Shown: piece by piece, positions 13,348 through 60,657 of the stretch
How positions within the stretch are numbered: position 1 is the stretch's first letter
How the letters are laid out: every line of letters begins with the position of its first letter
Source of the DNA: Malacoraja senta
Taxonomy: Eukaryota
Length of the DNA: 64,000 bases
NCBI GenBank assembly: GCA_038087875.1
Contig: CM075995.1
Location: 8,682,001-8,746,000, forward strand
Direction: 5' to 3'
The notes under the pieces: model-generated
Told to the model about the DNA's origin: nothing
What the model saw: only the letters and a program-made list of their open reading frames with translations
Database searches by the model: none
Translations under genes and position numbers: made by a program

Positions 13348-13658
13348 AAACGTCACCTATCCATGTTCTCCACAGATGCTGCCTGACCCGCTGAGTTACT
13401 CCAGCACTCTGTGAAACGTCACCTATCCATGTTCCGGCAGCATCTATGGAGCGAAGGAAATAGGCAACGTTTCGGCCCGAAACCCTTCCGGGTTTCGGCC
13501 CGAAACGTTGCCTATTTCCTTCAGGGTTTCGGCCCGAAAGGTTGCCCATTTCCTTCGCTCCACAGATGCTGCCTGACCCGCTGAGTTACTCCAGCACTCT
13601 GTGAAACGTCACCTATCCATGTTCTCCACAGATGCTGCCTGACCCGCTGAGTTACTCC
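13348..13658 (+). repeat. 66-bp Penelope pLTR-derived tandem repeat with palindromic cassette
   Basis: Unit gaaacgtcacctatccatgttctccacagatgctgcctgacccgctgagttactccagcactctgt; cassette at 13436-13573. Confidence 0.9.
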
Positions 13659-14977
13659 TGTGTGTTTTTTTTAAATTGTAAACCAGTTCTTTGTGTCTAC
13701 ATCGGACAATTCATTCATCACTTAGAATCATCAACCCACATCATTTTGACTCATAAGTAATATAGTAAAATGTCCCAAGGCACTTCATAGGAATGCAGTC
13801 AGACAGTACGTGTGACACAAATCCAAGACAGACAGGATGAGCGGTGAGTAATAACTCGGTCAAAGTTTCGTGGACTCTTTTTGAAGGAGAATAGGAGAAA
13901 ACTCAAAAGTTTAGTTTAGAGATAAAGCGCGGAAACAGGCCCTTCGGCCCACCGAGTCCGTGCCGGCCAGCGATCACCATGTACACTAGTACTCTCCTAC
14001 ACACACTGGGGACAATTAATGGGCCCCATATCTGAGGAAGGATGTGCTGGCTCTGGAGAGGGTCCAGAGGAGGTTTATACAAGAATGATCCCAGGAATGA
14101 GTGGGTTAACCTATGATGAGCGTTTGTCGGCGCTGGGCCTGTACTCGCTGGAGTTTAGAAGGATGAGGGGGGGCCTCATTGAATCGTACATAATAGTGAA
14201 AGGCCTGGATAGAGTGGATGTGAAGAGGATGTTTCCACTAGTGGGAGAGTCTAGGACCAGAGGTCACAGCCTCAGAATTAAAGGACGTACTTTTAGGAAG
14301 GAGATGAGGAGGAATTTCTTTATTCAGAGGGTGGTGAATCTGTGGGATTCTTTGCCACAGACGGCTGTGGAGGCCACAAGTCAGTGGATATATTTTAAGG
14401 TGGAGGTAGATAGATTCTTGATTAGTGCGGGTGTCAGAGGTTATGGGGAGAAGGGAGGAGAATGGGGTTAGGAGGGAGAGATAGATCAGCCATGATCGAA
14501 TGGCGGAGTAGACTTGATGGGCCGAATGGCCTAATTCTGCTCCGATCACTTCAGATCTTATGATCTTACGGAGATGAGGATAGACACAAACTGCTAGAGT
14601 AACTGACTGTACCTCGGTATATGTGACAATAAACTACACTGCAAACTGAGGCGGGCAGCAGTGGGAACTCAAGTGCAATGTGAGATTGTTGCAGTGAGGG
14701 GCTGATTCTCTGGGTATTTTCAGCAGCTGGTTCCGCAGTGAACATGCACTACTGGTCTGGAGTTCATCATATGATGCTTTCTGCGGCAATACAATGCAGC
14801 TTCTGTGCACTGCGCAGACAGATGACTTCAGACCGGGGGAGAATGTGAAAAATTGCAACGTTCACAGAATGCGCATTTCGAAGTCACAAGAGCTGTCGAC
14901 TTTTAGACACTGGGCTTTCCGAGACACAGCGTGGAAACGGGCCCTTCGGCCCACCGAGTCCGTGCTGCCCTGCGGTC

Positions 14978-15511
14978 ATAGATACATAGAAACATAGAAA
15001 ATAGGTGCAGGAGTAGGCCATTCGGCCCTTCGAGCCTGCACCGCCATTCAATGTGATCATGGCTGATCATCCAACTCAGTATCCCGTACCTGCCTTCTCT
15101 CCATACCCCCTGATCCCTTTAGCCACAAGGGCCACATCTAACTCCCTCTTAAATATAGCCAATGAACTGGCCTCAACTACCCTCTGTGGCAGAGAGTTCC
15201 AGAGATTCACCACTCTCTGTGTGAAAACGTTTTTCCTCATCTCGGTCTTAAAGGATTTCCCCCTTATCCTTAAGTTGTGACCCCTTGTCCTGGACTTCCC
15301 CAACATCGGGAACAATCTTCCTGCATCTAGCCTGTCCAACCCCATAAGAATTTTGTACGTTTCTATAAGATCCCCTCTCAATCTCCTAAATTCTAGCGAG
15401 TATAAGCCAAGTCTATCCAGTCTTTCTTCATATGAAAGTCCTGACATCCCAGGAATCAGTCTGGTGAACCTTCTCTGCACTCCCTCTATGGCTATAATGT
15501 CCTTCCTCATA
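14978..15511 (-). mobile_element. CR1 LINE 3' fragment (young 'KILMGLDRLDAGRL' subfamily)
   Basis: ORF 15076-15510 is nearly identical to the copies at 33277-34250 and 37163-37808. Confidence 0.92.
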
Positions 15512-15934
15512 CGCTATCCTACACGCTCTAGGGACAAGGTAGCGTAGCCAGTCGACCCACAAACCCGCACGTCTTGGGAGTGAGGGAGAAACCGGAGCAC
15601 CCGGAGAAATCCCACGGGGAAGAACGTACAAACTCCGTACAGACGGCACCAGTAGTCTGTACACCGTGGACGGCTCGATTGTAATCATGTGTTGTCTTTC
15701 CGCTGACCGGTTAGCACGCAACAAAAGCTTTTCACTGTACCCCGCTACACGTGACAATAAACAAAACTATCCATGTACCTGTCCAAATGTGCCTTTAGAT
15801 GTTGTTATGGTTACTGCCTCTAATACCTGCTGTGGCTGCTTGATCCACACACCTACCTCCCTCTGGAAAACGTTATTAACCAACACACCTATTATTGACC
15901 TATTAAATCATCCCTCGCTCGCAAACCTAACTTC

Positions 15935-20869: not shown

Positions 20870-22085
20870 GTTAGTGCTATACGGGTGGGTTTAAACTAAA
20901 TAGTGGGGGGGGGGGGTTGACAAATTGGGAGTATAAAGATGGAATTAAAGGGAAAGAGAGCACAGGAAAAGTTACGAGTGGCTGCTGAATTTATGGGACA
21001 GAAAGTTCAAGAGGGATAAGAGAGTATGGTCAGGTGAAATGGGAACCGTTGTGAGAGGGGAGGTGGACAACGGATTAAAAGTGTTGTGTATGAATGCGCG
21101 AAGTATAAGGAATAAAGTGGACGAGCTTGAGGCTCAGTTAGAGATTGGCAAGTAGGGTTATTGATCGGGGACGATCAGCCATGATCACAATGAATGGTGG
21201 TGTTGGCTCGAAGGGCCGAATGGCCTCCTGCTGCACCTATTTCCTGTGTTTCTATGTTTCTATGTTAAGTATGATGTTGTGGAAATTACAGAGACATGGC
21301 TGCAACAGGGCCAGGGCTGGGAACTGAATATTAGACAATAGACAATAGGTGCAGGAGTAGGCCATTCGGCCCTTCGAGCCAGCACCCCCATTCAATGTGA
21401 TCATCCCCAATCAGTACCCCGTTCCTGCCTTCTCCCCATATCCCCTGACTCTGCTATTTTTAAGAGCCCTATCTAGCCCCCTCTTGAAAGTATCCAGAGA
21501 ACCTGCCTCCACCGCCCTCTGAGGCAGAGAATTCCACAGACTCACCACTCTCTGTATACCTTCAAGGGTATACCTCCTATCGAAAAGACACACAGGTGGG
21601 CAGAGGGGGTGGGGTTGCTCTGTTGGTGAGGAATGAAATTCAGTCCCTTGCAAGGGGTGACATTGAAACAGGAGATGTGGAGTCAGTATGGATAGAACTA
21701 AGGAATTGTAAGGGTAAAAAGACCCTAATGGGACTAATCTACAGGCCCCCAAACAGTAGCTTGGACATAGGGCACAAGTTGAATCAGGAGTTAAAATTGG
21801 CATGTCGCAAAGGTAATGCTGTGGTTGTTATGGGAGATTTCAACATGCAGGTAGACTGGGAAAATCAGGTTGGTACTGGACCCCAAGAAAGGGACTTTGT
21901 AGAGTGCCTTCGTGATGGATTCTTAGAACAGCTTGTATTGGAGCCTACCAGGGAAAAGGCAATTCTGGATTTAGTGTTGTGTAATGAAGCGGATTTGATA
22001 AAGGACCTTGAGGTTAAGGAGTTAGTGACCACAATACGATAAGTTTTAATCTGCAATTTGAGAGGGAGAAGGTTAAATCAGAAGG
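20870..22085 (+). mobile_element. CR1 LINE ORF1-end / ORF2 APE endonuclease region, interrupted by two CR1 3'-end insertions
   Basis: Reassembled: LKVLCMNARSIRNKVDELEAQLEIGK-YDVVEITETWL..GWELNI-QGY..GRGGGVALLV..IYRPPN..VMGDFN..ILDLVLCN. Confidence 0.88.
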
Positions 22086-23669: not shown

Positions 23670-25329
23670 TGACTCTCAGTCTGAAGAAGGGTCTCGACAC
23701 AAAACGTCACCCGTTCCCTCTCTCCAGAGGTGCTGCCTCACCTGCTGAGTTACTCCAGCATTTTGTGTCTGTCCAAAGCTGCCTCATGGTTTCAGTACCA
23801 GCAGCTCAACTGTTACCAGGCAACTGAACCATCCCACTGCAACCAGGGAGCAGTCCGGAACTACTATCTACCTCATTGGTGACCTTCAGACTATCTTTAA
23901 TCAGACTTCACCGGATTTCCCTTACACTAAACGTTACTAGACAATAGACAATTGGTGCAGGAGTAGGCTGTTCGGCCCTTCGAGCCAATCAATGTGATCA
24001 TGGCTGATCAACCACAATCAGTATCCCGTTCCTGCCTTCTCCCCATATCCCCTGACTCCACTATCTTTAAGAGCCCTATCTAGCTCTCTCTTGAAAGCAT
24101 CCAGAGAACCGGCCTCCACCGCCCTCTGAGGCAGAGAATTCCACAGACTCACAACTCTCTGTGAGAAAAAGTGTTTCCTCGTCTCCGTTCTAAATGGCTT
24201 ACTCCGTATTCTTAAACTGTGGCCCTTATCGTGTGCATGGTTCGATTGTAATCATGTATTGTCTTTCCGCCAACTGGTTAGCACGCAACGAGAGCTTCAC
24301 GCCGACCCTCGGTACAGGTGACAATAAACTAAACTGAAACTGAAAACGTTTGGTGTGCTGTAGTTTCGAGGTACAGCGCAGAAGTGGGTCCTACAGCCCA
24401 CCGAGCCCACCACGACCAGCGATCGACCGGTACACTAACACTATCCTACACACTAGTTACAATTTATTATTTTTACCAAAGCCAATTAACCTACAAACCT
24501 GGACATCTCTGGAGTGTGGGAGGAAACCAGTGCACCCGGAGTAAACCCACACAGTCACAGGGAGAACGTACAAACTCTGTACAGACAGCGCCCGTGGTCA
24601 GGATCGAACCAGGGTCTCTGGTGCCGTGAGGCTGCAACCCCACCGCTGTGCCACCATGCCGTCTAGTGTAGTGTAGTCTGTTGCAGTGTGACAATAGACA
24701 ATAGGTGCAGGAGGAGGCCATTTGGCCCTTCGAGCCAGCACCGCCATTCAATGTGATCATGGCTGATCATCCCCAATCAGTACCCCGTTCCTCCCTTTTC
24801 CCCATATCCCCTGACTCCGCTATCTTTAAGAGCCCTATCTAGCTCTCTCTTGAAAGCATCCAGAGAACCGGCCTCCACCGCCCTCTGAGGCAGAGAATTC
24901 CACAGACTCGCCACTCTCTGTGAGAAAAAGTGTTTCCTCGTCTCCGTTCTAAATGGCTTACCCCTTATTCTTAAACTGTGGCCCCTGGTTCTGGACTCCC
25001 CCAACATCGGGAACATGTTTCCTGCCTCTAGCGTGTCCAAACCCCTTAACAATCTTATATGTTTCAATAAGATTCCCTCTCATCCTTCTAAACTCCAGAG
25101 TGTACAAGCCCAGCTGTGGGCTGTAGTACAGTTCAGTTTAGGAGGGGTGGCGTGGTGGCCCTGCGGTAACCCCCAGCTAACAACGGCCTGTTTCCTTTAT
25201 CATCATTACTTCTTTGCATATCTTTCATTCATTTGTTCTATATCTCTCTACATCACCGTCTGTATCTCTCGTTCCCCTCTCCCCCGACTCTCAAGCAGTG
25301 TCTCGCCCCAAAACGTCACCTATCCATGT

Positions 25330-25750
25330 GTTGAAGAAGGAACTGCAGATGCTGGAAAATCGAAGGTAGACAAAAATGCTGGAGAAACTCAGCGGGTGCA
25401 GCAGCATCTATGGAGCGAAGGAAATAGGCAACGTTTCGGGCTGAAACCCTTCTTCAGACTGATAGGGGGTGAGGGGCGGGGAGAAAAAAGGAAAAAGGAG
25501 GAGGAGGAGGAGGTTGCGAAACTGTCTCAGGAGAGAGGAATCTCCTCAAGGTATGGTATGCCTACTTTGAAGAAGTTCTCCTCCTCTCTCCGGAGACAGT
25601 TTCACTTCCTCCTCCTCCTCCTCCTTTTTCCTTTTTTCTCCCCGCCCCCACCCCCCCACTCCCTATCAGTCTGAAGAAGGGTTTCGGACCGAAACGTCGC
25701 CTATTTCCTTCGCTCCATAGATGCTGCTGCACCCGCTGAGTTACTCCAGC
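25330..25750. mobile_element. Penelope-derived fold-back element with long inverted pLTR arms
   Basis: Arms about 25377-25535 and 25585-25750 are reverse complements; hammerhead-like motif in each arm. Confidence 0.8.
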
Positions 25751-26012
25751 ACTCTGTGAAACGTCACCTATCCATGTTCCCCACAGATGCTGCCTGACCC
25801 GCTGAGTTACTCCAGCACTCTGTGAAACGTCACCTATCCATGTTCCAGCAGCATCTATGGAGCGAAGGAAATAGGCAACGTTTCGGCCCGAAACCCTTCC
25901 GGGTTTCGGCCCGAAACGTTGCCTATTTCCTTCAGGGTTTCGGCCCGAAAGTTTGCCCATTTCCTTCGCTCCACAGATGCTGCCTGACCCGCTGAGTTAC
26001 TCCAGCACTCTG
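25751..26012 (+). repeat. 66-bp tandem repeat with palindromic cassette
   Basis: Same unit as 13348; cassette at 25847-25984. Confidence 0.9.
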
Positions 26013-27234
26013 TGTCTATCTTCTGCACTGTTCTGTGTTCCATGATCCTCCAATTCGGCAAGTGGGAAAATCAGTTAATGATATCGGGAATGACTCATAT
26101 TTTTTTTTTTAAAGCTCGTTATCATTTTGTGCGAGGCAGCCGTCCACAGACCCAAGTGCAGACTGACCCTGTTTACATTTAAAATATCCAATCAGAATAC
26201 AGAGTAGTGTTGCCGGGCAACAGTGACTGTAAATGGCTGCAAGTCTTTACGTGTAAACCATCTGCCCGATTCAAGTCATCGTCGTTGTCAAGTTCCTTCA
26301 TGTGTGTCTGTGAATCTTTCCTGTAGTTTGGTTGAGAGACACAGCAAGGAAACAGGCCCTTCGGCCCACCCAGTACATAGGTTCATAAGTGGACCGGGGC
26401 AGAATTTGGCCATTCTGCCCATCAAGTCTACTCCGACCAGGTTAATTCCCCGGGATGGCGGGACTGTCATACGCTGAGAGAATGGGGCGGCTGGGCTTGT
26501 ACACTCTGGAGTTTAGAAGGATGAGAGGGTATCTCATTGAAACATTTAAGATTATTAAGGGCTTGGACACGCTAGAGGCAGGAAACATGTTCCCGATGTT
26601 GGGGGAGTCCAGAACCAGGGGCCACAGTTTAAGAATAAGAGGTAAGCCATTTAGAACGGAGACGAGGAAACACTTTTTCTCACAGAGAGTGGTGAGTCTG
26701 TGGAATTCTCTGCCTCAGAGGGCGGTGGAGGCCGGTTCTCTGGATGCTTTCAAGAGAGAGCTAGATAGGGCTCTTAAAAATAGCGGAGTCAGGGGATATG
26801 GGGAGAAGGCAGGAACGGGGTACTGATTGGGGATGATCAGCCATGATCACATTGAATGGCGGTGCTGGCTCGAAGGGCCGAATGGCCTACTCCTGCACCT
26901 ATTGTCTGTTGTTATGGGGAGAAGGCAGGAGAATGGGGTTAGGAGGGAGAGATAGATCAGCCATGATTGAACGGTGGAGTAGATTCGATGGGCCGAATGG
27001 CCTAATTCTGCTCCTATCACTTATGATCATGAAGCTTCTTGACTAGTAAGGGTGTCAGGGGTTATGGGGAGAAGGAGGGAGAGAGGTGTTGAGAGGGAGA
27101 GATAGATCAGCCATGACTGAATGGTGGAGTAGACTCGATGGGCCAAATGGCCCAATTCTGCTCCTATATGGGCGTCGAAGGTTACGGGAAGATGGCAGGA
27201 GAATGGGGTTTGGAGGGAGAGATAGGTGGAGCAT

Positions 27235-28460
27235 GTAGAATGGATAAGGGAGAGCCAGTGGATGTGGTGTACCTGGACTTTCAAAACGCCTATGACAAGG
27301 TCCCACACAACCGATTCGTGGGCAAAATTAGGGCACATGGTATTGGGGTTAGGGTGCTGACATGGATAGAGAACTGGTTGGCAGACTGGAAGCAAAGAGA
27401 CAAATTAATTGGTCCTTTTCAGAATGGCAGGCAGTGACTAGTGGGGTACCGCAAGGCTCGGTGCTGGGACCCCAGCTATTTACAATATACATCAATGATT
27501 TGGATGAAGGGATTCAAAGTAACATTAGCAAATTTGCAGATGACAAAAAGCTGGGTGGCAGTGTGAACTGTGAGGAGGATGCTATGAGAATGCATGGTGA
27601 CTTGGACCGGTTGGGTGAGTGGGCAGATGCATGGCAGATGAAGTTTAATGCGGATAAATGTGAGGTTATCCACTTTGGTGGCAAGAACAGGAAGGCAGAT
27701 TATTATCTGAATGGCATCAGATTAGGAGAAGGGGAGGTGCAACGAGACCTGGGTGTGCTTGTACATCAGTCACTGAAAGTAAACATGCAGGTACAGCAGG
27801 TAGTGAAGAAAGCTAATGGCATGTTGGCCTTCATTGCGAAATAATTTGAGTTTAGGAGCAAGGAGGTCCTACTGCAGTTGCACAGGGCCCTGGTGAGACC
27901 ACACCTGGAGTATTGTGTGCAATTTTGGTCTCCTAATTTGAGGAAGGACATTCTTGCTATTGACAGAGTGCAGCGTAGGCTCACCAGGTTAATTCCCGGG
28001 ATGGCGGGACTGACATCTGATGAAAGAATGGATCAACTGGGCTTGTATTCACTGGAATTTAGGATGAGATGAGATCTTATAGAAACATATAAAATTCTTA
28101 AAGGATTGGACAGGCTAGATGCAGGAAAAATGTTCCTGATGTTGGGGGAGTCCAGAACCAGGGATCCCAGATAAGAATAAGGGATAGGCCATTTAGGACT
28201 GAGATGAGGAACAACCTTTTCAACCAGAGAGTTGTGAATCTGTGGAATTCTCTGCCACAGAAGGGAGTGGAGGCCGATTCACTGTATGTTTTCAAGAGAG
28301 AGTTAGATTTAGCTCTGAGGGCTAAAGGAATCAAGGGATATGGGGAGAAAGCTGGGACGGGGTATTGATTTTGGATGATCTGCCATGATCATATTGAATG
28401 GCGGTGCTAGCTCGAAGGGCCGAATGGCCTACTCCCACACCTGTTTTTCCATGTTTTTGC
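27235..28460 (+). mobile_element. CR1 LINE ORF2 RT region to 3' end, degenerate
   Basis: VDVVYLDFQNAYDKVPH..PQGSVLGPQLFTIYINDLDE..KFADD..; stops and frameshifts. Confidence 0.92.
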
Positions 28461-29743: not shown

Positions 29744-29797
<54 letters not shown>

Positions 29798-37808: not shown

Positions 37809-38139
37809 CTCGGAGAAAGCCCGCAGCGGGCACAGGGAGAACGTAATACTCCCTACAGACAAGCGCCCGGAGTCAGGATCGAACCCGGGTCTCTGCTGCT
37901 GTGAGGGCAGCAACTCTACCGCTGCGCCACTGTGCCTCCACACTCTTGACACCAATTCACTGATCAAATTACTTACTCTAATATATACAAACAGCTTAGA
38001 ATTACAGTAAACAAATGCACGTCCTTTGTGGTGATATTTGATTGGGACAGGACTGTAAAACCGGTTATGCAAAACGGCACTACATCAAGTGTAAAACACA
38101 CACAGAGTGCTGGAGTAACTCAGGGGGCAGGCAGCTTGC

Positions 38140-39014
38140 TCCAGCACTCTGTGAAACGTCACCTATCCATGTTCCCCACAGATGCTGCCTGACCCGCTGA
38201 GTTACTCCAGCACTCTGTGAAACGTCACCTATCCATGTTCTCCACAGATGCTGCCTGACCCGCTGAGTTACTCCAGCACTCTGTGAAACGTCACCTATCC
38301 ATGTTCCGGCAGCATCTATGGAGCGAAGGAAATAGGCAACGTTTCGGCCCGAAACCCTTCCGGGTTTCGGCCCGAAACGTTGCCTATTTCCTTCAGGGTT
38401 TCGGCCCGAATGTTTGCCCATTTACTTCGCTCCACAGATGCTGCCTGACCCGCTGAGTTACTCCAGCACTCTGTGAAACGTCACCTATCCATGTTCTCCA
38501 CAGATGCTGCCTGACCCACTGAGTTACTCCAGCACTCTGTGAAACGTCACCTATCCATGTTCTCCACAGATGCTGCCTGACCCGCTGAGTTACTCCAGCA
38601 CTCTGTGAAACGTCACCTATCCATGTTCCGGCAGCATCTATGGAGCGAAGGAAATAGGCAACGTTTCGGCCCGAAACCCTTCCGGGTTTCGGCCCGAAAC
38701 GCTTCCGGGTTTCGGCCCGAAACGTTGCCTATTTCCTTCAGGGTTTCGGCCCGAAGGTTGCCCATTTCCTTCGCTCCACAGATGCTGCCTGACCCGCTGA
38801 GTTACTCCAGCACTCTGTGAAACGTCACCTATCCATGTTCTCCACAGATGCTGCCTGACCCGCTGAGTTACTCCAGCACTCTGTGAAACGTCACCTATCC
38901 ATGTTCCCCACAGATGCTTGCCTGACCCGCTGAGTTACTCCAGCACTCTGTGAAACGTCACCTATCCATGTTCTCCACAGATGCTGCCTGACCCGCTGAG
39001 TTACTCCAGCACTC
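38140..39014 (+). repeat. 66-bp tandem array with two palindromic cassettes
   Basis: Longest array in the window; cassettes at 38308-38445 and 38630-38789. Confidence 0.92.
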
Positions 39015-39309
39015 CGTGTCTATCTAAGTCAATAGATATTTTTAAGGCAGAGATGGACAGATTCCTGATTAGTGCGGGTGTCAGGGGGTTACGGGGAGAA
39101 GGCAGGAGAATGGGGTTGGGAGGGAGAAATAGATCAGCCGTGATTGAATGGCGGAGTAGACTTGATGAGCCGAACGGGCAAATTCTGCTCCGATCATTTT
39201 ATGAACCAGGGCATCCTCTGCTCTCTGCTCTCCCCTGTCCGCAGGGTGCCTGAAGGTGAGGATGTTGGGAATGGGGCGCAGCCAGAAAGCGAGGCGCAAC
39301 CCCATCAAA

Positions 39310-43190: not shown

Positions 43191-45386
43191 CTCGACGAAT
43201 AACAAAGAACTAGTGCAAACGCCCGGGTGATCGATGGTCAGAATGGACTCGGCGGGCCGAACGGCCTGTTTCCACGCTGTATCTTAAGCCAAGTAAATAA
43301 CGAGAGTGATTTTTCTGCGCGCCGGTGACATTTGGAGAACTCGTCTTGTACCCTGGTGACAAGGCTAGCTGAACGTGCCAAAATCATGCTGGGAACAGCT
43401 CAGATCAGCAGCCAAGAGTCTGTGGAGTGATACCAAGTGCTACCAAGCTGACTACACCGAAGAGACTAATGTCAGGTTTACTATCTCCCATCATGGTTGA
43501 TGGATTGAACATAAGTGGTGGAATTATCGAGCTACTATTCAGAAAACACACACAGAGGGTTCCAGCAACAGCAACAGCACCAGATGAGTCATACAGCACG
43601 GAGACAGGCCCTTCAGCCCAACATGACCATGCCCACCATCTAGGTTTAGTTTAGTTTAGTTTGGAGATACAGTGCGGAAACAGGCCCTTCGGCCCATCGA
43701 GTCGGTGCCGACCAGTCGTCACAATCAAACTCACACTAGGGACAATTTACAGCTTTTTTCAAAAACCGGAACCAATTCACCAACAAACCCGTGGGAGGAA
43801 ACCGGAGCACCAGGAGAAAACCCACACAAGTCACAGAGAGAACGTACAAACTCCGTACAGGCAGCACCCGTAGTCGGGGGTTGAACCCGGGTCTCTGGCG
43901 CTGTGAGGCAGCAACTCTACCGCTGCGCTGCCATGCCACAATAAACAATAGGTGCAGGAGTAGGCCATTCGGCCCTTCGAGCCAGCACCGCCATTCAATG
44001 CGATCATGGCTGATCATCCCCAATCAGTACCCCGTTCCTGCCTTCTCCCCATAACCCACTCTGTGTTGTATGCAAGATTCCTTGCTGGATAGGGCTATCT
44101 TTAAGAGCCCTATCCAGCTCTCTCTTGAAAGCATCCAGAGAACCTGCCTCCACCGCCCTCTGAGGCGAGAATTCCACAGACTCACCACTCTCTGTGAGAA
44201 AAAGTGTTTCCTCGTCTCCGTTCTAAATGGCTTACTCCTTATTCGTAAACTGTGTGGCCCCTGGTTCTGGACTCCCCCAACATCTGGAACATGTTTCCTG
44301 CCTCTAGCGTGTCCAAGCCCTTAACAATCTTATATGTTTCAATGAGATTCCCTCTCATCCTTCTAACCTCCAGAGTGTACAAGCCCAGCTGCTCCATTCT
44401 CTCAGCATATGACAGTCCCGCCATCCCGGGAATTAACCTTGTAAACCTACGCTGCACTCCCTCAATAGCAAGAATGTCCTTCCTCAAATTAGGGGACCAA
44501 CACTGCCCACAATACTCCAGGTGTGGTCTCACTAGGGCCCTGTACAAGTGCCACACACTTGCAGGTCAGTTTAGCATTATCACGTGTACTGAGGTACAGC
44601 GGAAAGCTATTAAAACACAAAGTATTTGTGCTATAAGCACGGCACGGTGGGGCAGCGGTAGAGTTGCTGCCTCACAGCACCAGAGTCCTGGGTTCGATCC
44701 CGACTACGGGTGCCGTCTGTACAGAGTTTGTACGTTCTCCCCGTGACCTGCGTGGGTTTCCTCCGGGATCTCCGGTTTCCTCCCACACATCCAAAGACGT
44801 GCAGGTTTGTAGGTTAATTGGCTTTGGAAAACATTCTAAATTGTTCCTAGTGTGTGTAGGATAGTGCTAGTGTACGGGGCGATCGCTGGTCAGCACGGAC
44901 TCGATGGGCCGAAGGGCCAGTTTCCACACTGTATCTCCAAACCACACCAGGATAAGCGCTCAACCAAGAAAACCAGGCCTAAAGCCAAAGGAGTACCTAA
45001 ACTACCAATACACACTTATACTAGAGGACAATAACTACATATTCAGTAATAAACTATCTACAGGATAACAAACGCACAAAATGAATGTTTAACTAAAAAC
45101 AAATCTCAATGCCACATGTGCATCTAAGATGCCTTTACACAGCTAAGCTATGGGACAATAAAAGCTAGGCGTGGGTTAAAACTATCACAACGTTTAAGAA
45201 ACATTTAGACAGGTACATGGATGGGACAGGTTTAGAGGGATACGGGCCAAACGCAGGCAGGTGGGACTAGTGGAGATGGTCGGCATGGTCAAGTTGGGCC
45301 GAAGGGCCTGTTTCCACGCTGTATCACTCTTTGACTCTTTACGATGCCAGTATTTCATGACCAGGCAATGCTTTGGGTCGGCACGC

Positions 45387-45775
45387 TATCCATGTTCTCC
45401 ACAGATGCTGCCTGACCCGCTGAGTTACTCCAGCACTCTGTGAAACGTCACCTATCCATGTTCTCCACAGGATGCTGGCTGACCCGCTGAGTTACTCCAG
45501 CACTCTGTGAAACGTCACCTATCCATGTTCTCCACAGATGCTGCCTGACCCGCTGAGTTACTCCAGCACTCTGTGAAACGTCACCTATCCATGTTCTCCA
45601 CAGGATGCTGCCTGACCCGCTGAGTTACTCCAGCACTCTGTGAAACGTCACCTATCCATGTTCTCCACAGGATGCTGGCTGACCCGCTGAGTTACTCCAG
45701 CACTCTGTGAAACGTCACCTATCCATGTTCTCCACAGGATGCTGGCTGACCCGCTGAGTTACTCCAGCACTCTGT
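45387..45775 (+). repeat. 66/67-bp tandem array, about 6 units
   Basis: Same unit with array-specific variants (cacaggatgctggct). Confidence 0.92.
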
Positions 45776-48491
45776 GTTGTATGCAAGATTCCAGCATCTG
45801 CAGTTCCTTGCATCTGTGCTTGGAAGCAGTTTAGAAGTAACAAGGCAGGGATAAAGGGTCTGTCCCACTGTACGAGTTTACCCAAGAGCTCTCCCGAGTT
45901 TAAAAAAAAATCAAACTCGTGGTAAGCACGTAGAATGTACGTAGCGGGTAAGTCGGAGTTCGTGGGCGTCTCTTAGCGGCTCGCAACGCTAACGGCAGGT
46001 ACTCGGGAAACACGGTAAGCTCGGGAAACCCGTGAAGTTTTTTCAACACGTGTGAAAAATTTCCAAGAGTAAAAAAATACTGGTGATGAAGCAGAAGTAC
46101 CACGAGTTAGATTTTTTTTTTTTTTAAACTCGGGAGAGCTCTTGGGTGAACCCGCATCGTGGGACAGGGGGTTTAAGAGTTGGTGAAGACGAGCTGCTGC
46201 AGTGTTTGCCTGTGGTCTGCATGTTTGTGGAGTCTGGAGGAATGTCTTGCTACACAAGACCACAGAAGCTGATTCCTTTCTGGAATTAGGTCTGGAGTCA
46301 GCAAGTTAATGCTTTTCCCAACGGCTCAATCACAGAGTTTGGCTTCACTGCTGAATTCGCAACTCCTGAGCACACGCTTTCTAGCTGAGAGCTTGGAGTA
46401 ATTTCAATAGTGAGAATAGTTTTTCAGTTGCTTTAAATACTGCTGCAGTTTCAGCGTTGCAATATCAGTGTCGCCAAAAGATCTTGGCCATTCGGCCGTT
46501 CAAGTCTACTCCGCCATTCAATCACGGCTGATCTACCTCTCCCTCCTAACCCCATTCTCCTGCCTTCTCCCCGTAACCCCTGACACCCGTACTTATCAAG
46601 AATCTATCTATCTCTGCCATTCACATTGAATGGCGGTCGGTGCTGGCTCGAAGGGCCAAATGGCCTACTCCTGCACCTATTGTCTATTGAACATTTCAAA
46701 ATCCAGAGGCGACCAAAAAAATGTCGCGACTCTTGGAAAAAACACCGCGCGTCAATACGTCATCACGCCGGGAATTTTTCGGTGACCTGATGCGTCAGTC
46801 AATGGTGCCGGCAGTCGCCAAAAAAATCACCGAGTGGGACAGGGCCCTTTATTGTCACCTGTACCGAGGTACAGTGAAAAGCTTTTGTTGCGTGCTAACC
46901 AGTCAGCGGAAAGACAACACATGATTACAATCGAGCCTTCCACAGTGTACAGATACATGATAATCCAATAAACCTGTGTCTTTGGAGTGTGGGAGGAAAC
47001 CGGAGCGCCCGGAAAAAACCCACGCGGTCACAGGGAGAACGTGCAAACTCCGTATAGACAGCACCCGTAGTCGGGATGGAACCCGGGTCTCTGGCGCAGT
47101 GAGGCAGCAACTCTACCGCTGCGCCACCCACCAGCGGTCAGGTATTTCTGTAATTAAGCCTTGAATGGGTCATGAATTCAAGACAAGCAGCAAAAATTGG
47201 CGCATGGATGTGGAGAGGATGTTACCACCAGTGGGAGAGTCTAGGACCAGAGGGCACAGCCTTAGAATCAAAGTACGTTCCTTTAGGAAGGAGATGAGGA
47301 GTATTTTCCTTAGTCAGAGGGCGGTGAATCTGTGGAATTCTTTGCCACAGACGGCTGTGGAGGCCAGGTCATGGGTATTTTTACGGCAGAGATTGATAAG
47401 ATTCTTGATCAGTACGGGTGTCAGGGGTTATGGGGAGAAGGCAGGAGAATGGGGTTAGGATGGAGAGATAGATCAGCCGTGATTGAATGGCGGAGTAGAC
47501 CTGATGGGCCGAATGGCCTAATTCTGCTCCTTTTCACTTATGATCTAATGTGTCAATCCGGTACTGATTGGGGATGATCAGCCGTGATAACATTGCTGGC
47601 TCGAAGGGCCGAATGGCCTACTCCTGCACCTATTGGTTCACACGCTTGATCAATGGTGTTTTATCATTAATGTTTTATTATCATTAATGTTTAGTGTTTT
47701 CCGAGTCATCCGTAACTGTCACTGTATGTCATGTTGTTACTTGTGGGCGGAGCACCAAGGCAAATTCCTTGTATGTGAATACTTGGCCAATAAACTATTG
47801 TCTTTTGTTTCCACGCTGGCTGGCTGGTGAGCAGGCAACAAATGCGTATGCACCGTCCCTCCCTACACGCGACAATAAACTAAACTGAACTGAACTGAAC
47901 CATCGGCGATTGGTGACACAGTGCGAGCAGCTGCTGGACGTGCCCACGTGGGGAATCTTGAATAAATTAGATTTCTGGTTGTGGGCAAGAATTGGAAACT
48001 CATGGCTGCAGTTTGCAGAGAGCTGCGTTGTTGGCAGCAACTTCAAACAGTGCCAATAGTTTCTATAAAGACTGATGTTTGCGCTAACACACCAAAGCAA
48101 ACAATAAAATACAACCCTTCACCCGCTCGGCTGCTCGATGGTCACAATACTCCATCCTTATGTTCATCGTCACGTGTACCGAGGTACGGTGAAAGGCTCT
48201 GGGCCCGTGCCAACCAGTCAGCGGAAAGACAGCACGTGATTACAATCGAGCCGTTCACAGGCGCAGAGATCCATGATAAAAGTATGCAGATACACCCCTG
48301 TACATCGGCGAGACCAAGCGCAGGTTCACCGATGATCGTTTCGCTGAACACCTCTGCTCAGTCCGGCTAAACCTTCCTGATCTCCCGGTGGCCCAGCACT
48401 TCAGGTCCCCCTCCCATTCCCCAAGTCTGAAGAAGGGTTTCGGCCCGAAACGTTGCCTATGTATGTAATTGTTTGTAATTGTATTTGTTAG

Positions 48492-48736
48492 TCTGTGTTC
48501 AAGATGGCGGTCGGAGGGGAGAGTGGACGCTGGCGCGGTTTCATTGCCGCTGCTCTCTCCTCAAATCTGATTTTCTTTTTTATGTTTTTGGAAGGAATTC
48601 TGTCCCTGATTTGTATATTGGTCTTTATAACATTTTTTTAAATTCTGATTATATGTTTCCTATAAATCTCTGTAAGGTGTCCTTGAGACCTCGGTATAAG
48701 GCGCCCGTAAATAAAATTCATTATTATTATTATTAT
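48492..48736 (+). mobile_element. Short non-autonomous L2-tailed element
   Basis: 5' caagatggcg (YY1-type) motif; 3' tgtaaggtgtccttgag..aaggcgcc..aaataaaat plus (ATT)n. Confidence 0.55.
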
Positions 48737-49027
48737 TTCCTTCGCTCCATAGATGCTGCTGCACCCGCTGAGTTTCACCAGCATTTTTGTGTACCTCCCA
48801 ACCTGACCTTTCTGTCCTGGGCCTCCTCCACTGTCAGAGTGAGGCCCAGCGAAAATTGGAGGAACAGCACCTCATATTTCGCTTGGGCAGCTTACACCCC
48901 AGCGGTATGAACATTGACTTCTCTAACTTCAAACAGCCCTCTCTCTCCATCCCCTCCCCCTTCCCAGTTCTCCTTACTGTCTCCACTTACATTCTATCTC
49001 TGTCCCGCCCCCTCCCCTGACATCAGT

Positions 49028-49055
49028 CTGAAGAAGGGTCTCGACCCGAAACGTC
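49028..49055 (+). ncRNA. Minimal hammerhead-ribozyme-like motif in Penelope pLTR
   Basis: CTGAAGA-A-GGGT(CTCG)ACCC-GAAAC-GTC; stem I poorly supported. Confidence 0.55.
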
Positions 49056-49411
49056 ACCCGTTCCTTCTCTCCAGAGATGCTGCCTGTCCCGCTGAGTTAC
49101 TCCAGCATTTTGTGTCGATCTTCTGGTTTGTGGGTCGATTTGCTTGGGTAATATTACAAATTGCTGCGAGTGTGTAGGATGGTGTTAATGTGCGGGGATC
49201 GCTGGTCAGCGCCGGCTGGATGGGCCGAAGGGCCTGTTTCAGCGCTGTATCTCAAAACTAAACGAAAAAATCCACAAATTACGCAGTGTGGATATGTAGA
49301 TTTGTCTGTTTGTACTAAAAATATTTTGGTGCGCGATATACTATTGCTGACTAGAGTCTAGATAATTGGTAGTTAAATCAACCATGTCTGAAATGATGCA
49401 TTATCAAACCC

Positions 49412-49563: not shown

Positions 49564-49575
49564 CTGTGAACACGT

Positions 49576-50474: not shown

Positions 50475-51390
50475 CTGCCTTAGAATTGTAGACACGCTTA
50501 TCCCAATTCTTGCGAGGCGATGGCAGAAAATTGATGCATTGAAAGTTCTTCTCGCTCATTCACGTAAAGAGACCTCCCCTTCATGAGAGGAATAGATCAG
50601 GCAGTCTCAAAATGCTGGAGTAACTCAGCGGGACAGGCAGCATCTCCGGAGAGTAGGAATGGGAGACGTTTCGGCTCGAGACCCATCTTCAGAAATGGAA
50701 ACGTCACCCATTCCTTCCTCTCCAGAGACGCTGCCTGTCCCGCTGAGTTACTCCAGCATTTCGTGTCCATCTTCGGATTAAACCAGCATCTGCAGCTCCT
50801 ACCTACGCAATGGATTGGGCAGGCGGGCAGGCGGGCAGACTCTCTCGCCCAGAGTAGGGGACTCGAGAACCAGAGAAGGTTTACGAGGATGTTGCCAGGA
50901 CTGGAGGGCCTGGGCTACAGGGAGAGGTTGAGCAGGCTGGGTCTCTATTCCATGGAGCGCAGGAGGATGAGAGGGATGATCTTATAGAGGTGTACAAAAT
51001 CATGAGAGGAATAGATCGGGTAGATGCACAGAGTCTCTTGCCCAGAGTAGGGGAATCGAGGACCAGAGGACATAGCGGTAGAGTTGCTGCCTCACAGCGC
51101 CCGAGACCCGGGTTCCATCCTCACTATGGGTGCCGTTTATATGGAGTTTGCACGTTCTCCCTGTGACTGCGTGGGTTTCTTCCAGAAGATCCGGTTTCCT
51201 CCCATACACCAAAGGATCGCTGGTCGGCGCGGACTCGGGGGGCCGAAGGGCCTGTTTGCTTGCTGTATCTCTAAACTAAACGGGACTAGCTTAGATGGGG
51301 CATATTGGTCGGCATGGATGAGTTGGGCCGAAGGGCCTGTTTCCGTGCTGCATAACTTTTTTTGTGTTGAATGGGCGACTGGACCCCCCC

Positions 51391-51523
51391 CCCCCTACGA
51401 CAACGTCTCCAACAACCAGGCACGTGCCGTCAGGGTAGGCCTACACCCTGACTTGACCCACCCCCTATGACAACGTCTCCAACAACCAGGCACGTGCCGT
51501 CAGGGTAGGCCTACACCCTGACT
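51391..51523. repeat. 70-bp-period tandem duplication with internal hairpin
   Basis: ccccctaygacaacgtctccaacaaccaggcacgtgccgtcagggtaggcctacaccctgact, twice. Confidence 0.9.
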
Positions 51524-51739
51524 AAAATTATAAAATGGTAATCACTAAATATAAATAGTAAATGCACGGGAGAATTATGCCTGCCTAAGCGATCGATCTC
51601 TTAGGTCGGCATAATTCTCCGTGCCTTTCATCCGCAGTACACGTAACACGGGAAAGTGTGTGCGGTCCACGTGCTGTCGAAGCTGCTTCAAGCCGTCAAT
51701 GACAAGCGGGGCTGAAGGCAGCTGAAATTCTGCCACCGC

Positions 51740-51865
51740 AGTACTGCGCATGCGCAGCGCTTGTTTCTTGGCGGGTTTTTTCAAATATGGATTGCCATTA
51801 TCTTAAGCGTATTTTAAGAAACAAAGAGAGAAGAATGGAGTTCGTGTACCGATAATGAGGTAAGT
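51740..51865 (+). promoter_or_regulatory. Promoter-like motif cluster: NRF1, E2F/CDE-CHR-like, consensus 5' splice site
   Basis: TGCGCATGCGCA 51745-51756; TTGGCGGG 51768-51775; TTCAAA 51780-51785; GAG|GTAAGT with intron start at 51860. CpG-rich context. Confidence 0.5.
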
Positions 51866-53380
51866 ACATTTCTTGGTGCTATATGTTTTTAAATACCGTA
51901 TTTCCCGGAGTTGGGTGGGGGGGGGGTGATTCCTTTCACAGCGTTTGGGGAGTCTGGCCCGGGGTAAAGTTGCGGGGAGGGCAGGAGCGTTGTGAAGGAG
52001 GGGACCGGGATCATGCAAGAAACCCACTTGCGACGCTCCTTGCACGGAGCCACCGCATTGAGGCTGGGGGGGTGGGGGGGGGGGTGGGGGAGTAGCTCGG
52101 GTGGCTGTGAGCGGCCTAGTCGATGGCAAGCTACGGCAAGCTAGCTTCAACCGGCGACCCAATTGGACGTCCACACCTACGACAACCTACGTCCACCCGC
52201 GACAAGGTAAGACAAGTCAGTCACCGGTACCTGTCGCAGGTTGACGTAGGCAGTCGCCAAAGGAATTCACTGCAGTCAGCACCTGGCGACAATCTACGAC
52301 AGCACCTACGTCAGGAGAAGTCAAGCTACGCTCATTGGCGTCAAACCAACTGTCGCCGACTGTTGGCGAAAAGGTTTGAACATTTCAAAATCCAGCGGCG
52401 ACCAGAAAAACGCTACGATTCTCCGGGCGACTGAGGAGACGACTCACGGCCGTACAGGCGACGCCCCGGCGACAACCTAGTCGCCTGTAGTCGCCTAGAA
52501 AATTGCCTAAGTGGGACAGGGGCATAACTGATGCTAGAGATTCACCGTGCCGCCTCGTGCATGCGGGATCAATACCGCGTGAGTTTTCTCCGGGTGCTCC
52601 GGTTTCCACCCACACACCCAAGACGCGCAGGTTTGTAGGTTAATTGGCTTTGGTAAAAATTGTAGATAGTCCCTACAGTGCTAGTGTACAGGGCAGATCG
52701 CTGGTCAGCGCGAGCTCGATGGGCTGAAGGGCCAGTCTCGGCGCTGCTAAATGCCTTCCTCTGTGCTCTTCCATTTGATAGTCTGCGACTGCAGAACCAG
52801 GGGCCGCAGTTTAAGAATAAGGGGTAAGCCATTTAGAACGGAGACGAGGAAACACTTTTTCTCACAGAGAGTTGTGAGTCTGTGGAATTTTCTGCCTCAG
52901 AGGGCGGTGGAGGCAGGTTCTCTGGATGCTTTCAAGAGAGAGCTAGATAGGGCTCTTAAAAACAGCGGAGTCAGGGGATATGGGGAGAAGGCGAACGGGG
53001 TACTGATTGGGGATGATCAGCCATGATCACATTGAATGGCGGTGCTGGCTCGAAGGGCCAAATGGCCTCCTCCTGCAGCTATTGTCTATTGTGTATTGAC
53101 TGCGCTGCTACAAGAAAATGCCTTTTACTTAAGCTGAAGAGAATTGAAAGGCTTTATCTTATTCAGCAATACGCAGCCCTCAGCACAAGCCACCAACACT
53201 GACAGGCCTGAACACTGCTTGCAGTTCATCAATGACGTAACTCCATTGTGAACGACTTTCCTCATCAGCTTATTCCTCCAACTTTACCACGTAGGACCAC
53301 GAGCCGATGCCAGCATGCCCAGAGAGAGACACTAGAAACTGCAGATGCTGCAAACTGGAGCAAAAAAAAACCCGATAAAA

Positions 53381-53641
53381 TGCTGGAGTAACTCAGTGGG
53401 TCAGGCAGCATCTGTGGAGAACATGGATAGGTGACGTTTCACAGAGTGCTGGAGTAACTCAGCGGGTCAGGCAGCATCTGTGGAGAACATGGATAGGTGA
53501 CGTTTCACAGAGTGCTGGAGTAACTCAGCGGGTCAGGCAGCATCTGTGGAGAACATGGATAGGTGACGTTTCACACAGAGTGCTGGAGTAACTCAGCGGG
53601 TCAGGCAGCATCTCTGGTGAACATGGATAGGTGACGTTTCG
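53381..53641 (-). repeat. 66-bp tandem array, reverse orientation
   Basis: tcaggcagca recurs at 53401 and 53467. A similar reverse array lies at 62260-62500 and a short forward one at 58438-58568. Confidence 0.92.
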
Positions 53642-54311: not shown

Positions 54312-55489
54312 ATTTCCTTCAATCAGATATTCCCGAAATTAGACATGCATTTTCAATCCAAGTAAACTGTTCTCTTGTGACCGAGCTGCATGTATTTGGG
54401 ACCATCTGATGACTTCTGTCTCAGTCTAAACGATTTCTTTCTGTTTTAGTGTAGAGATACAGCGCGGACAATAGACAATAGGTGCAGGAGGAGGCCATTC
54501 GGCCCTTCGAGCCAGCACCGCCATTCAATGTGATCATGGCTGATCATCCCCAATCAGTACCCCGTTCCTGCCTTCTCCCCATATCCCCCTGACTCTTCAA
54601 GCTATCTTCAAGAGCCCCCATTCAATGTGACCATCCCCAATCAGTACCCCGTTCCTGCCTTTTCCCCATATCCCCCTGACTTTTCAAGCTATCTTCAAGA
54701 GCCCCCATTCAATGTGACCATCCCCAATCAGTACCCCGTTCCTGCCTTCTCCCCATATCCCCCTGACTCCACTATCTTTAAGAGCCCCATCTTACTCTCT
54801 CTTGAAAGTATCCAGAGAACCTGCCTCCACCGCCCTCTGAGGCAGAGAATTCCACAGACTCACAACCCTCTGTGAGAAAAAGTGTTTCCTCGTCTCTGTT
54901 CTAAATGGCTTACCCCTTATTCTTAAACTGTGGCCCTTCGGCCCACCGAGTCCGCCCGGACCAGCAATCCTCGCACATTAACACTATCCCCCACACACAC
55001 ACACACATACACACACAACGGACAATTTACATTTATTCCAAGCCAATTAACCTACAAACCCGCACGTCTTTGGAATGTGGGAGGACACACGAAGATCTCG
55101 GAGAAAACCCGCGCGGGTCACGGGGAGAGGTTCCGTACAGACGGCAACCCGTAGTCAGGTTTGAACCCGGGTCTCTGGCGCTGCGAGGCAGCAGCTCTAC
55201 CCGCTGCGCCACAGTGACGGAGTTGTGCACATCTCGGACTGTCAGATGACTTCTGCATCAGCCTCAATTATTTCCTCCTGATTATTTGCACAAGATCCGT
55301 TAACACAGCACACCACTGATCTTGTCAAATCTACGCTCCGGTATCACAGTGTCCAATTAGGGCGGCACGGTGGCCTAGCGTTGGAGTTGCTGCCTCACAG
55401 CGCCGGAGACCCGGGGTCCATCCCGACCACGGAGTTTGTGCCTTCTCCCCGTGACCTGCGTGGGTTTCCTCCGGGTGCACCGGTCTCAA

Positions 55490-57584: not shown

Positions 57585-58150
57585 CAGTTGAGTTTATTGT
57601 CACGTGTACCGAGGTACAGTGAAAAGCTTTTGTTGCGTGCTAACCAGTCAGCGGAAAGACAATACATGATTACAATCGAGCCGTCCACAGTGTACAGATA
57701 CAGGATAAGGGAATAACGTTTAGTGCAAGGTAAAGCCAGCAAAGTCCGATCAAGGATAGTCCGAGGGTCTCCAATGAGGTAGATAGTAGTTCAGGACCGC
57801 TCTCTGGTTGTGGTGGGACGGTTCAGTTGCCTGATAACAGCCGGGAAGAAACTGTCCCTGAATCTGGAGGTGTGTGCGTTCGTTTTCACACTTCTGTACC
57901 TCTTGCCTGATGGGAGAGGGGAGAAGAGGGAGTGGCCGGGGTGAGACTGGTCCTTGATGATGCTGCTGGCCTTGCCGAGGCAGCGTGAGGTGTAGACGGA
58001 GTCAATGGAAGGGAGGTTGGTTTGTGTGACGGTCTGGGCTGCGTCCACAATTCGCCGCAATCTCTTGAGGTCTTGGATGGAGCCGTTCCCAAACCGTGCC
58101 GTGATGCATCCGGATAAAATGCTTTCTACGGCGCATCTGTAGAAGTTGGT
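57585..58150 (-). mobile_element. Rex1/Babar LINE 3' fragment
   Basis: TLTNFYRCAVESILSGCITARFGN..IIKDQSHPGHSLFSPLPSGKRY..FFPAVIRQLN. Confidence 0.88.
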
Positions 58151-60147
58151 GAGAGTTGTACTGTTGGAAGATATGGTGAATATTCTCCCTTTAGATGTAG
58201 TGATGGGGAAGCGAGCGGTGTAGATGACAGAGGCAAGAGGTGACACAAGGAACTGCAGATGCTGGTATCTTGAGCACAAGACAAAGTGCTGGAGTAACTC
58301 AGCGGGTCAGGCAGCATCTGTGGAGAACATGGATAGGTGACGTTTCGGATCGGGATCCTTCTTCACGTTGTATTCCGACCCCCACCTCTCTTCCAGCTTC
58401 CTATCTCCCCTACCACAATCAGTCTCAAGACCTGACCTGAAACGTCACCTATCCATGTTCTCCACAGATGCTGCCTGACCCGCTGAGTTACTCCAGCACT
58501 CTGTGAAACGTCACCTATCCATGTTCTCCACAGATGCTGCCTGACCCGCTGAGTAACTCCAGCACTTTGTGTCTTCCTAAGTCCTTTAGAGTTGGCTGTA
58601 TTCCCCAAAATACCAATCCCATTTCAACAATTACTTTGGGGTTTGAAGACTATTCTGAAGCAGTAGCACATATAAAAACATAACAGCACACGATAGAATT
58701 TCCAGCCTCTCAACTATAAACCTAAATGTTAATGGGGTAGCTTTGAAGTACAAGCATTAAAGTTTAATAGGATCCACTTGGAATGATTCTGCTTTCCCCA
58801 CTGCGCAAGGCTTTCATTAAACTACAACGTTAGACATTCTCTTCCACGAAACAAGTCGAAACACAGAGGAAGAGAGAAGGCAAAATGCCCATCGGGCAAG
58901 AGGTACAGAAGTGTGAAAACAAACGCACACCACCAGATTCAGGGACAGTTTCTTCCCAGCTGTTATCAGGCAACTGAACCGTCCTCTCACCAACTAGAGA
59001 GCGGTCCTGACCTCCCATCTACCTCATCGCGGACTATCGGACTGTCTCTGGACTGGCTTTACCTTGCACTGAGGCTCACTGACGCTTTTCACTGGTGGCA
59101 TGAAAGCCATCGACCCAGTAACTGATGCTGCCCTGGCCTGGATGTCCACACTTGATAGACAATAGACAATAGGTGCAGGAGTAGGCCATTCGGCCCTTCG
59201 AGCCAGCACCGCCATTCAATGTGATCATGGCTGATCATCCCCAATCAGTACCCCGTTCCTGCCTTCTCCCCATATCCCCTGACTCCGCTATCTTTAAGAG
59301 CCCTATCTAGCTCTCTCTTGAAAGCATCCAGAGAACCGGCCTCCACCGCCCTCTGAGGCAGAGAATTCCACAGACTGACAACTCTCTGTGAGACAAAGTG
59401 TTTCCTCGTCTCCGTTCTAAACGGCTTACCCCTTATTCTTAAACCGTGATGTACAACTTTAGGCTGTACACGCCATAGGCAAGAAGAAGTCACCTTGCGC
59501 TAAATGTTTGAAGGCCCTGTCCCACTGTACGAGGTAATTCAAGAGTTATCCCGAGTTTTCCATTGATTCGAACTCGGGAGAATGTACGTAGAGGCTACGT
59601 AGGAGCTCGTAGTGGCTCGTAATGCTAACGGCAGGTACTCGGGGAAACGCGGTAACGGTGAAAAATGTCCAAGAATAAAAAAAATACTCGTGATGAACTT
59701 ACCACAAGTTTGATTTTTTTTTTTAAATACTCGGGAGAGCTTCTGGGTTAACTCGCATAGTGGGACAGGGGCTTAAGAAAGAACTGCAGATGCTGGAACA
59801 ATCGACAGAAGACAAAAATGCTGGAGAAACTCAGCGGGTGAGGCAGCATCTATGGAGCGAAGGAATGGGTGACCTTTCGGGTCGAGACCCTGAAACGTCA
59901 CCCATTCCCTCGCTCCACAGATGCTGGAGTGCCTCGGCCACTCCCTCTTCTCCCCCTCTCCCATCGGGCAAGGGGCACAGAAGTGTGAAAACGCACACCT
60001 CCAGATTCAGGGAGAGTTTCTTCCCTGCTTCACCAATGTCTTGTACAACTGCAACATGACCTGTAGAATCTTAAAATGTCATAAAAAAAAGGAACTGCAG
60101 ATGCTGGTTGACACCAAAGATGGACACTTAATGCTGGAGTAACTCAG

Positions 60148-60657
60148 CTATCCATGATCTCCACAGATGCTGCCTGACCCGCTGAGTTACTCCAGCACTC
60201 TGTGAAACGTCACCTATCCATGTTCTCCACAGATGCTGCCTGACCCGCTGAGTTACTCCAGCACTCTGTGAAACGTCACCTATCCATGTTCTCCACAGAT
60301 GCTGCCTGACCCGCTGAGTTACTCCAGCACTCTGTGAAACGTCACCTATCCATGTTCCGGCAGCATCTATGGAGCGAAGGAAATAGGCAACGTTTCGGCC
60401 CGAAACCCTTCCGGGTTTCGGCCCGAAACGTTGCCTATTTCCTTCAGGGTTTCGGCCCGAAAGTTTGCCCATTTCCTTCGCTCCACAGATGCTGCCTGAC
60501 CCGCTGAGTTACTCTAGCACTCTGTGAAACGTCACCTATCCATGTTCTCCACAGATGCTGCCTGACCCGCTGAGTTACTCCAGCACTCTGTGAAACGTCA
60601 CCTATCCATGTTCTCCACAGATGCTGCCTGACCCGCCGAGTTACTCCAGCACTCTGT
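60148..60657 (+). repeat. 66-bp tandem array with palindromic cassette
   Basis: Cassette at 60359-60496. Confidence 0.92.

Follow-up and report, generated by a model that had tools for sequence, protein, structure and literature searches.

The 66-bp tandem repeat that occurs in eight arrays within a 64,000-nt window of the skate Malacoraja senta (CM075995.1; "the window" denotes this whole stretch of DNA) is a slice, lacking the catalytic hammerhead core and stem II, of a Penelope pseudo-long terminal repeat (pLTR) arm. A feature not noticed in the initial annotation of this DNA is that the arrays appear to lie in register inside older, more decayed, and mutually different pLTR copies. The repeat may be a pLTR-derived, non-coding, dispersed minisatellite that recolonizes older copies of its own parent by homology-directed copying, a reading to which about an even chance is given here. 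All array statistics refer to the eight arrays of this single window, which are numbered as in the table.

The unit was found by BLAST and Tandem Repeats Finder (TRF) in six arrays on the plus strand and two on the minus strand; TRF calls seven of the eight, with a period of 66-67, and array 1 was found by BLAST. Leaving aside units that carry a cassette and partial units at the array ends, there are 21 full plain units; compared with one window unit, they show 14 differences over 1386 positions, corresponding to 99.0% identity. Exact copies of the 24-nt unit junction number 28 in the window, and the junction displays a microhomology of only 1 bp. The unit corresponds to the arm sequence from behind stem II to a few bases short of the pLTR terminus, and its boundary is located 8 nt upstream of the presumed hammerhead cleavage site; its fold is unremarkable (z -0.7). 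A hammerhead core, searched for in strict or relaxed form on both strands, is present in none of the eight arrays. Given the missing core and the 8-nt offset of the boundary, the unit does not represent a monomer released by self-cleavage. The description of eight arrays of one ribozyme-dead 66-bp unit in the initial annotation is borne out. With regard to orientation, all five of the cassettes described below do lie on the plus strand, but two of the arrays are on the minus strand.

Directly upstream of five of the eight arrays a pLTR stem is found in register, and all five stems are different. Taken together, and each compared with the most similar of five template stems, the host stems are different at 22 of 113 nt, against the 14 differences in 1386 positions within the units (Fisher p 4e-17). 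An inverted arm marks the start of the other three arrays, with a weak match (12/15) at 45386. On the opposite side, seven arrays run into the terminus or the tail of a pLTR, of differing kinds, and one is interrupted by another repeat; the end of array 7 (60657) was judged by eye, the automated match there being not meaningful. In arrays 5 and 6, letters foreign to the unit are confined to the outer portions of the terminal units, while array 2 switches from family A, a second pLTR subfamily, to the unit type within its first repeat. In arrays 5 and 7, less than 31 bp separates the host letters. No common 3' end was found, the ends being different although two to three arrays stop at the pLTR terminus, and a convincing target site duplication (TSD) was seen at none of the eight arrays (two 6-mers at one site, with a chance rate of 17%, for element boundaries set by eye). 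The proposal that the element spreads as an array plus cassette with common ends is not supported in view of these differing ends, the lack of convincing TSDs, and the four arrays that are devoid of a cassette.

The relative age of array and host can be approached at array 1. Measured against a majority sequence from three further cassette blocks, this array differs at one of 312 positions, which is a shared subtype site. Its host tail is apparently also present in the orthologue of a second species (organism B), where the unique flank differs at 18 of 237 positions (7.6%), with the proviso that the contig in question could be a paralogue; this contig starts inside the host tail without reaching the arm. 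An array as old as its flank would be expected to show about 12 differences (P 9e-5), so that array 1, being young next to a diverged flank, would not be as old as the flank. At this site the array would be either later than the tail or rewritten since. Either case would call for a sequence-directed transfer, unless a new insertion had landed exactly in register. The 5' body of array 1 has a paralogue within the window (13146-13366 versus 25115-25329, with 11 substitutions and one gap in 215 sites); the pair shares a decayed stem, and both members lead into array loci.

Five cassettes interrupt four of the eight arrays. Their positions in the initial annotation (13436, 25847, 38308, 38630, and 60359) and their uniform orientation are confirmed, while the reported length of 138-160 bp is to be replaced by a net insert of 124 bp (146 bp at 38630). 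The order of the parts is unit positions 1-22, an inverted family-A arm, one base, a direct arm starting from stem II, a second copy of 34 bp, and unit positions 22-66. In cassette 1, the inverted arm comprises 52 bp with 96% identity to the arm at 25364-25461, the direct arm corresponds to arm positions 13-45, and the duplicate 34-bp stretch continues into the unit. Folded as DNA, this cassette reaches -59.6 kcal/mol (z -13.7), which is equalled by none of 200 shuffles. The cassette is no new module of its own: it is a head-to-head palindrome of family A with the centre and the outer arm deleted and a 34-bp duplication added. The two cassettes of array 3 belong to different subtypes, which are distinguished by several substitutions and an extra duplication of 22/23 bp; therefore, the higher-order duplication ascribed to the array at 38 kb is not a simple recent local doubling, and the array is a mosaic. 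A full family-A palindrome, at 25330-25730, interrupts an arm of family B at what corresponds to unit position 20, and the right arm of this palindrome switches into array 2. The nesting at unit position 20 (25311-25755), which is close to position 22 used by the cassette, would be compatible with either a relative of the cassette ancestor or a preferred target site within the pLTR.

Table. Coordinates of the 66-bp arrays, their cassettes, and Penelope-related features in the window.
Feature	Position	Strand	Remarks
Array 1	13347-13658	+	One unit, one with cassette, one truncated; host 5' body at 13146-13346, host tail at 13659-13700
Array 2	25691-26014	+	First unit with 5' part of family A and 3' part of unit type; stops at pLTR terminus
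Array 3	38136-39018	+	Longest array; preceded by 36-bp inverted arm (38100-38135); stops at pLTR terminus
Array 4	45386-45776	+	Without cassette; private variants recur in several units; followed by pLTR tail (41/47 to tail at 58346-)
Array 5	53381-53640	-	Without cassette; non-unit letters in 5' part of first unit and 3' part of last unit; flanked by decayed stem and tail
Array 6	58439-58571	+	Two units; right palindrome arm; left arm (58281-58365, minus) unexpanded
Array 7	60144-60657	+	Preceded by older inverted arm and tail (60086-60143)
Array 8	62259-62500	-	Without cassette; host stem 62503-62526; 3' end interrupted by another repeat
Cassette 1	13435-13557	+	In array 1; used for arm decomposition and fold
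Cassette 2	25846-25968	+	In array 2
Cassette 3	38307-38429	+	In array 3
Cassette 4	38629-38773	+	In array 3; extra 22/23-bp duplication
Cassette 5	60358-60480	+	In array 7
Family-A head-to-head pLTR palindrome, full	25330-25730		Two intact hammerhead-like cores (25457-, 25671+)
Penelope remnant	48280-49116	+	GIY-YIG-type ORF pieces 48280-48423 and 48805-48933, then a spacer rich in pyrimidines and a pLTR arm (core at 49028)
Head-to-head pLTR palindrome	63419-63861		Around C-terminal piece of the same GIY-YIG-type ORF (63542-63655)

The parental pLTR is represented in the window by 33 pLTR-like intervals (merged BLAST matches, array intervals included). The arms at 49028 and 63769 are located about 100 bp behind the end of a GIY-YIG-type open reading frame (ORF), whose three fragments match relatives that contain both pieces in one domain; in three of ten such relatives, sub-threshold Pfam matches to GIY-YIG were obtained (E 0.008-0.02). 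The window fragments alone have no Pfam match, a homologue search with the decayed N-terminal piece found none, and an Atlas assignment to GIY-YIG at 0.88 is a lead only. Named protein matches to the Penelope fragment come from skates. No Penelope reverse transcriptase (RT) piece was recognized among 130 ORFs, the RVT_1 matches falling in LINE-like pieces elsewhere. Ten arms carry the core, stem II, a palindromic stem III, and the GAAACGTY motif of the minimal hammerhead; the genomic form of helix I comprises 2 bp in seven of them and 0, 3, and 5 bp in the others. Rfam returned no hammerhead family up to E 1, the 50 matches listed including sub-threshold hairpins of the miRNA type only. Head-to-head inverted pLTR pairs are found at 25330-25730, 58240-58571, 63419-63861, and elsewhere, with tails present or absent.

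Head-to-head pLTRs and an optional tail are described for Penelope-like elements (PLEs) (PMC3846280, PMC11167929), and a minimal hammerhead in their pLTRs is likewise described (PMC4209133). The Penelope origin advanced in the initial annotation is supported by the GIY-YIG-type ORF ends directly before the parent arms, and the order of ORF end and arm, the head-to-head pairing, and the facultative tail are those of the described PLEs. The arms agree with PLE pLTRs (PMC4209133, PMC3846280, PMC11167929) in following the end of a GIY-YIG-type ORF, in possessing core, stem II, and palindromic stem III, in their head-to-head arrangement, and in a tail of about 30-40 nt or none. The repeat departs from them in that the unit retains only the part after stem II, in tandem, and in that the cassette is a palindrome that has collapsed and has no cores. 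Directly before the core of intact arms, a pyrimidine tract followed by CAG is present (25660-25671, 49015-49028, and 63755-63769), resembling a splice acceptor. With a genomic helix I of only 2 bp, splicing might complete this helix, as has been reported of the element of D. virilis (PMC4209133). Within 48280-48933, the end of the GIY-YIG-type ORF is split by a pLTR arm (48424-48460, 48734-48792), which is itself broken by a 270-bp AT-rich insert.

The occurrence of the repeat in public sequencing runs was evaluated over positions 13150-13920, for which 24 runs are listed; 21 of these, in 11 studies, hold part of the sequence. The share of words held is 0.81 in run X1, 0.49 in run X2, and 0.41-0.45 in 13 runs of five further organism labels, where a share of 0.41 is expected if all array words and the common body are held, and 0.19 if only junction-free words are. 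Six RNA runs, which are metatranscriptomes and constitute no test of expression, hold 0.07-0.12 of the words, which is less than the 0.17 possible from junction-free parent pieces. Contigs were compared for four runs from three studies and three organism labels (X1, X2, X3, and X5). One contig of X1 connects the last unit of array 1 with the unique flank of that array, with one difference. A letter specific to the cassette, at 13489, is found at summed depths of about 341,000 (X1), 71,000 (X2), 986,000 (X3), and 16,000 (X5), and cassette-specific letters are deep in the contigs of all four runs. The unique flank has a depth of about 23-24 in X1 and X3; in X2 and X5, cover of most of this flank is missing. 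The summed depth at the cassette centre exceeds that of the single-copy flank 14,000-fold (X1) and 43,000-fold (X3), or about 450-fold and 1,400-fold, respectively, if overlapping contigs overcount 31-fold; these sums are not copy numbers and support "many copies" only. An assembly artefact and a confinement to one locus, against which the initial annotation had cautioned, are both unlikely; the deep cassette letters in four of four runs speak for a real repeat. The letter at 13540 has a frequency of 70-78% in organism A and of 7-13% in organisms B and D, which suggests species-specific subtypes. The unit-junction pattern gave no match in metagenome contigs and none in viral contigs, as is expected of a vertebrate repeat.

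Homology-directed recolonization would proceed as follows. As the sequence shows, the unit was created when 66 bp of a pLTR arm, without core and stem II, were duplicated once in tandem. A unit would then have received, at its position 22, a head-to-head palindrome of the second subfamily, from which the centre and outer arm were deleted and to which the 34-bp duplication was added; here the decomposition is seen directly, while the order of events is deduced, and the resulting cassette would subsequently ride along as a long variant unit. Next, a break in any of the many pLTR arms would be repaired from an array elsewhere, either by synthesis-dependent strand annealing with out-of-register re-annealing or by single-crossover insertion of a tandem DNA circle. 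Both are textbook repair routes. As a result, a number of fresh units would replace or expand the old arm, with stem and tail remaining. Local duplication of units would follow, as is displayed by array 4. More units would mean more donors, and neither a ribozyme nor a transcript would be required for the spread. Common descent of the arrays is indicated by the single junction, found 28 times with 1 bp of microhomology, and by the one complex cassette shared by four arrays.

Several observations weigh against this scheme. No contig spans any array, so that no empty site is seen. The stems and tails of pLTRs differ strongly between subfamilies (PMC4209133); due to this variety, the flank differences do not all reflect age. 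The unexpanded arm at 58346 equals the unit at 65 of 66 positions, with differing flanks. Arrays 2, 3, and 7 stop at or near an ordinary pLTR terminus, and the inverted 5' arm of array 3 carries a unit-type letter, both as would be the case for a fresh Penelope insertion. The cross-species argument concerns one locus and a tail of about 18 nt, on a contig that could be a paralogue, and the sample is eight arrays, with the boundaries for the TSD search drawn by eye. The main rival is a non-autonomous Penelope passenger, for which the RT/endonuclease of an active Penelope would copy array transcripts in trans, starting from the last unit's pLTR terminus. Existing pLTRs or their immediate vicinity would often serve as insertion sites, and pairing with the host arm would resolve the 5' joint. 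The termini of arrays 2 and 3 (and of array 7, by eye), the inverted 5' arm of array 3, and the nesting of the family-A palindrome at 25330 in a pLTR arm would all fit, and because ribozyme-dead RNA still inserts in vitro (PMC11167929), the RT route remains a serious rival. It is, however, opposed by the non-unit letters and tails of arrays 5 and 6, which occupy the 3' end where the cDNA would begin, and by the variation of the tails between arrays together with the lack of TSDs, and it is considered possible yet the less probable explanation. A homing form of it, according to which resident pLTRs are nicked by the Penelope endonuclease and then receive, in register, copies that the telomerase-related RT makes of multimeric array RNA, is regarded as doubtful. 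If true, it would constitute a ribozyme-free parasite of a parasite, with RNA-templated, site-directed tandem addition at internal sites, genome-wide, by a relative of telomerase in several skate species.

That each array was formed on the spot, by slippage at a pLTR hot spot, would be in line with the local unit duplication in array 4, with the other tandems derived from transposable elements (TEs) in the window (29, 70, and 87 bp), and with the finding that tandem repeats of TE origin tend to expand where they arose (PMC3389668); yet eight arrays share a junction with 1 bp of microhomology, four share a cassette with four joints, and the variant letters in the terminal units of arrays 5 and 6 do not recur in the inner units. 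With the shared cassette alone largely refuting it, independent slippage is very unlikely. Near-identical interiors within diverged flanks are also what gap filling would produce if consensus paths of a repeat graph were pasted into homologous sites, all the more as no record spans a whole array and X1, the best holder, may be the source sample. Against such an artefact, cassette-specific letters are found at large summed depth in four of four runs from three studies, the 13 runs of five further labels are near the share for all junction words and far above that for none, the X1 contig joins array 1 to its unique flank, and the arrays have private variants, so that gap filling is held to be highly improbable. 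The lowest probability of all is given to a non-LTR retrozyme spreading via a 66-nt circular RNA. The repeat is pLTR-derived and tandem, like animal retrozymes (bioRxiv 10.64898/2026.07.22.740005), but it has no core in any array, a boundary off the cleavage site, and an unremarkable unit fold. Membership among the retrozymes, a kinship entertained in the initial annotation, was rejected, as a complete type I hammerhead per tandem unit is found in none of the eight arrays and the unit boundary does not coincide with the presumed cleavage site.

Among known systems, the non-LTR retrozymes of animals (PMC7229834; bioRxiv 10.64898/2026.07.22.740005) likewise form short, dispersed, pLTR-related tandem arrays, mostly of fewer than 8 units; their reported unit range of 51-972 bp includes 66, and they are pLTR-derived (bioRxiv 10.64898/2026.07.22.740005; PMC7229834, PMC4918200, PMC6155905). 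A type I hammerhead, however, defines each retrozyme unit and is lacking here, so the pipeline of bioRxiv 10.64898/2026.07.22.740005 would not have called these arrays. Minisatellites derived from TEs, which are common (PMC3389668, PMC9659126), are comparable in being tandems of a TE slice inside TE copies, examples being Alu and LTR12 (PMC3389668; reviewed in PMC9659126). They mostly grow in place or travel with the TE (PMC3389668, PMC9659126), whereas one junction lineage here occupies hosts of different subfamily and age. An analogy is provided by the Rsp-like repeats in 1.688 clusters on the X chromosome of the Drosophila simulans clade (PMC7403614), which also form young, near-identical short arrays at sites with an older repeat and mixed higher-order units moving together, and for which interlocus conversion or extrachromosomal circular DNA has been proposed. 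Near-identical arrays at many loci are found in the skate, too (units 99.0% alike, cassette letters deep in four of four runs). The difference is that two unrelated satellites are joined by microhomology in the fly (PMC7403614), while the target of the skate repeat is the end of its own parent retrotransposon, with the array in register over tens of bases. In its way of working, the skate repeat would be a dispersed satellite of TE origin and of the Rsp-like type. No description of this repeat or of skate Penelope-derived satellites was found in a literature search of which most subscription papers, Dfam, Repbase, and the supplements of bioRxiv 10.64898/2026.07.22.740005 (family lists for one cartilaginous fish, which may bear on novelty) were not part; as a family, the 66-bp repeat is probably undescribed.

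The window as a whole is repeat-dense vertebrate DNA, 70% of which matches itself elsewhere in the window. Among the 130 ORFs (at least 98 aa), Pfam recognizes only RT and endonuclease pieces of the LINE type, apart from a single weak match, and no host exon. LINE-type RT/endonuclease remnants are located at 2626-3258 (minus), 27117-27841 (plus), and 21488-22039 (plus), and many 5'-truncated LINE 3' ends of several ages are spread across the window. The other tandems are found at 3709-4351 (29 bp x22), 51387-51523 (70 bp x2), and 54541-54788 (87 bp x2.9); those at 3709-4351 and 54541-54788 resemble, by eye, slices of common dispersed repeats. MITE-like stretches with the inverted, recurring short terminal motif CCTGTCCCACT are found at 59515-59780, in the region of 51629-52573, and at approximately 62100-62260, and one such CCTGTCCCACT-bounded stretch interrupts the end of array 8.

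Summarizing, an effect on a host gene is not indicated. The routes by which short satellite arrays reach new loci are an open question for which few cases are readable at the base level. In the present case the crossover points are marked by letters specific to the host, which flank each array on either side, and the number of targets is probably in the thousands. As the same junction words are held by several related species, conversion, circle reinsertion, and RT-mediated homing would predict different, countable outcomes. Screens based on the hammerhead miss pLTR-derived tandems that have lost their ribozyme, as the skate repeat shows.

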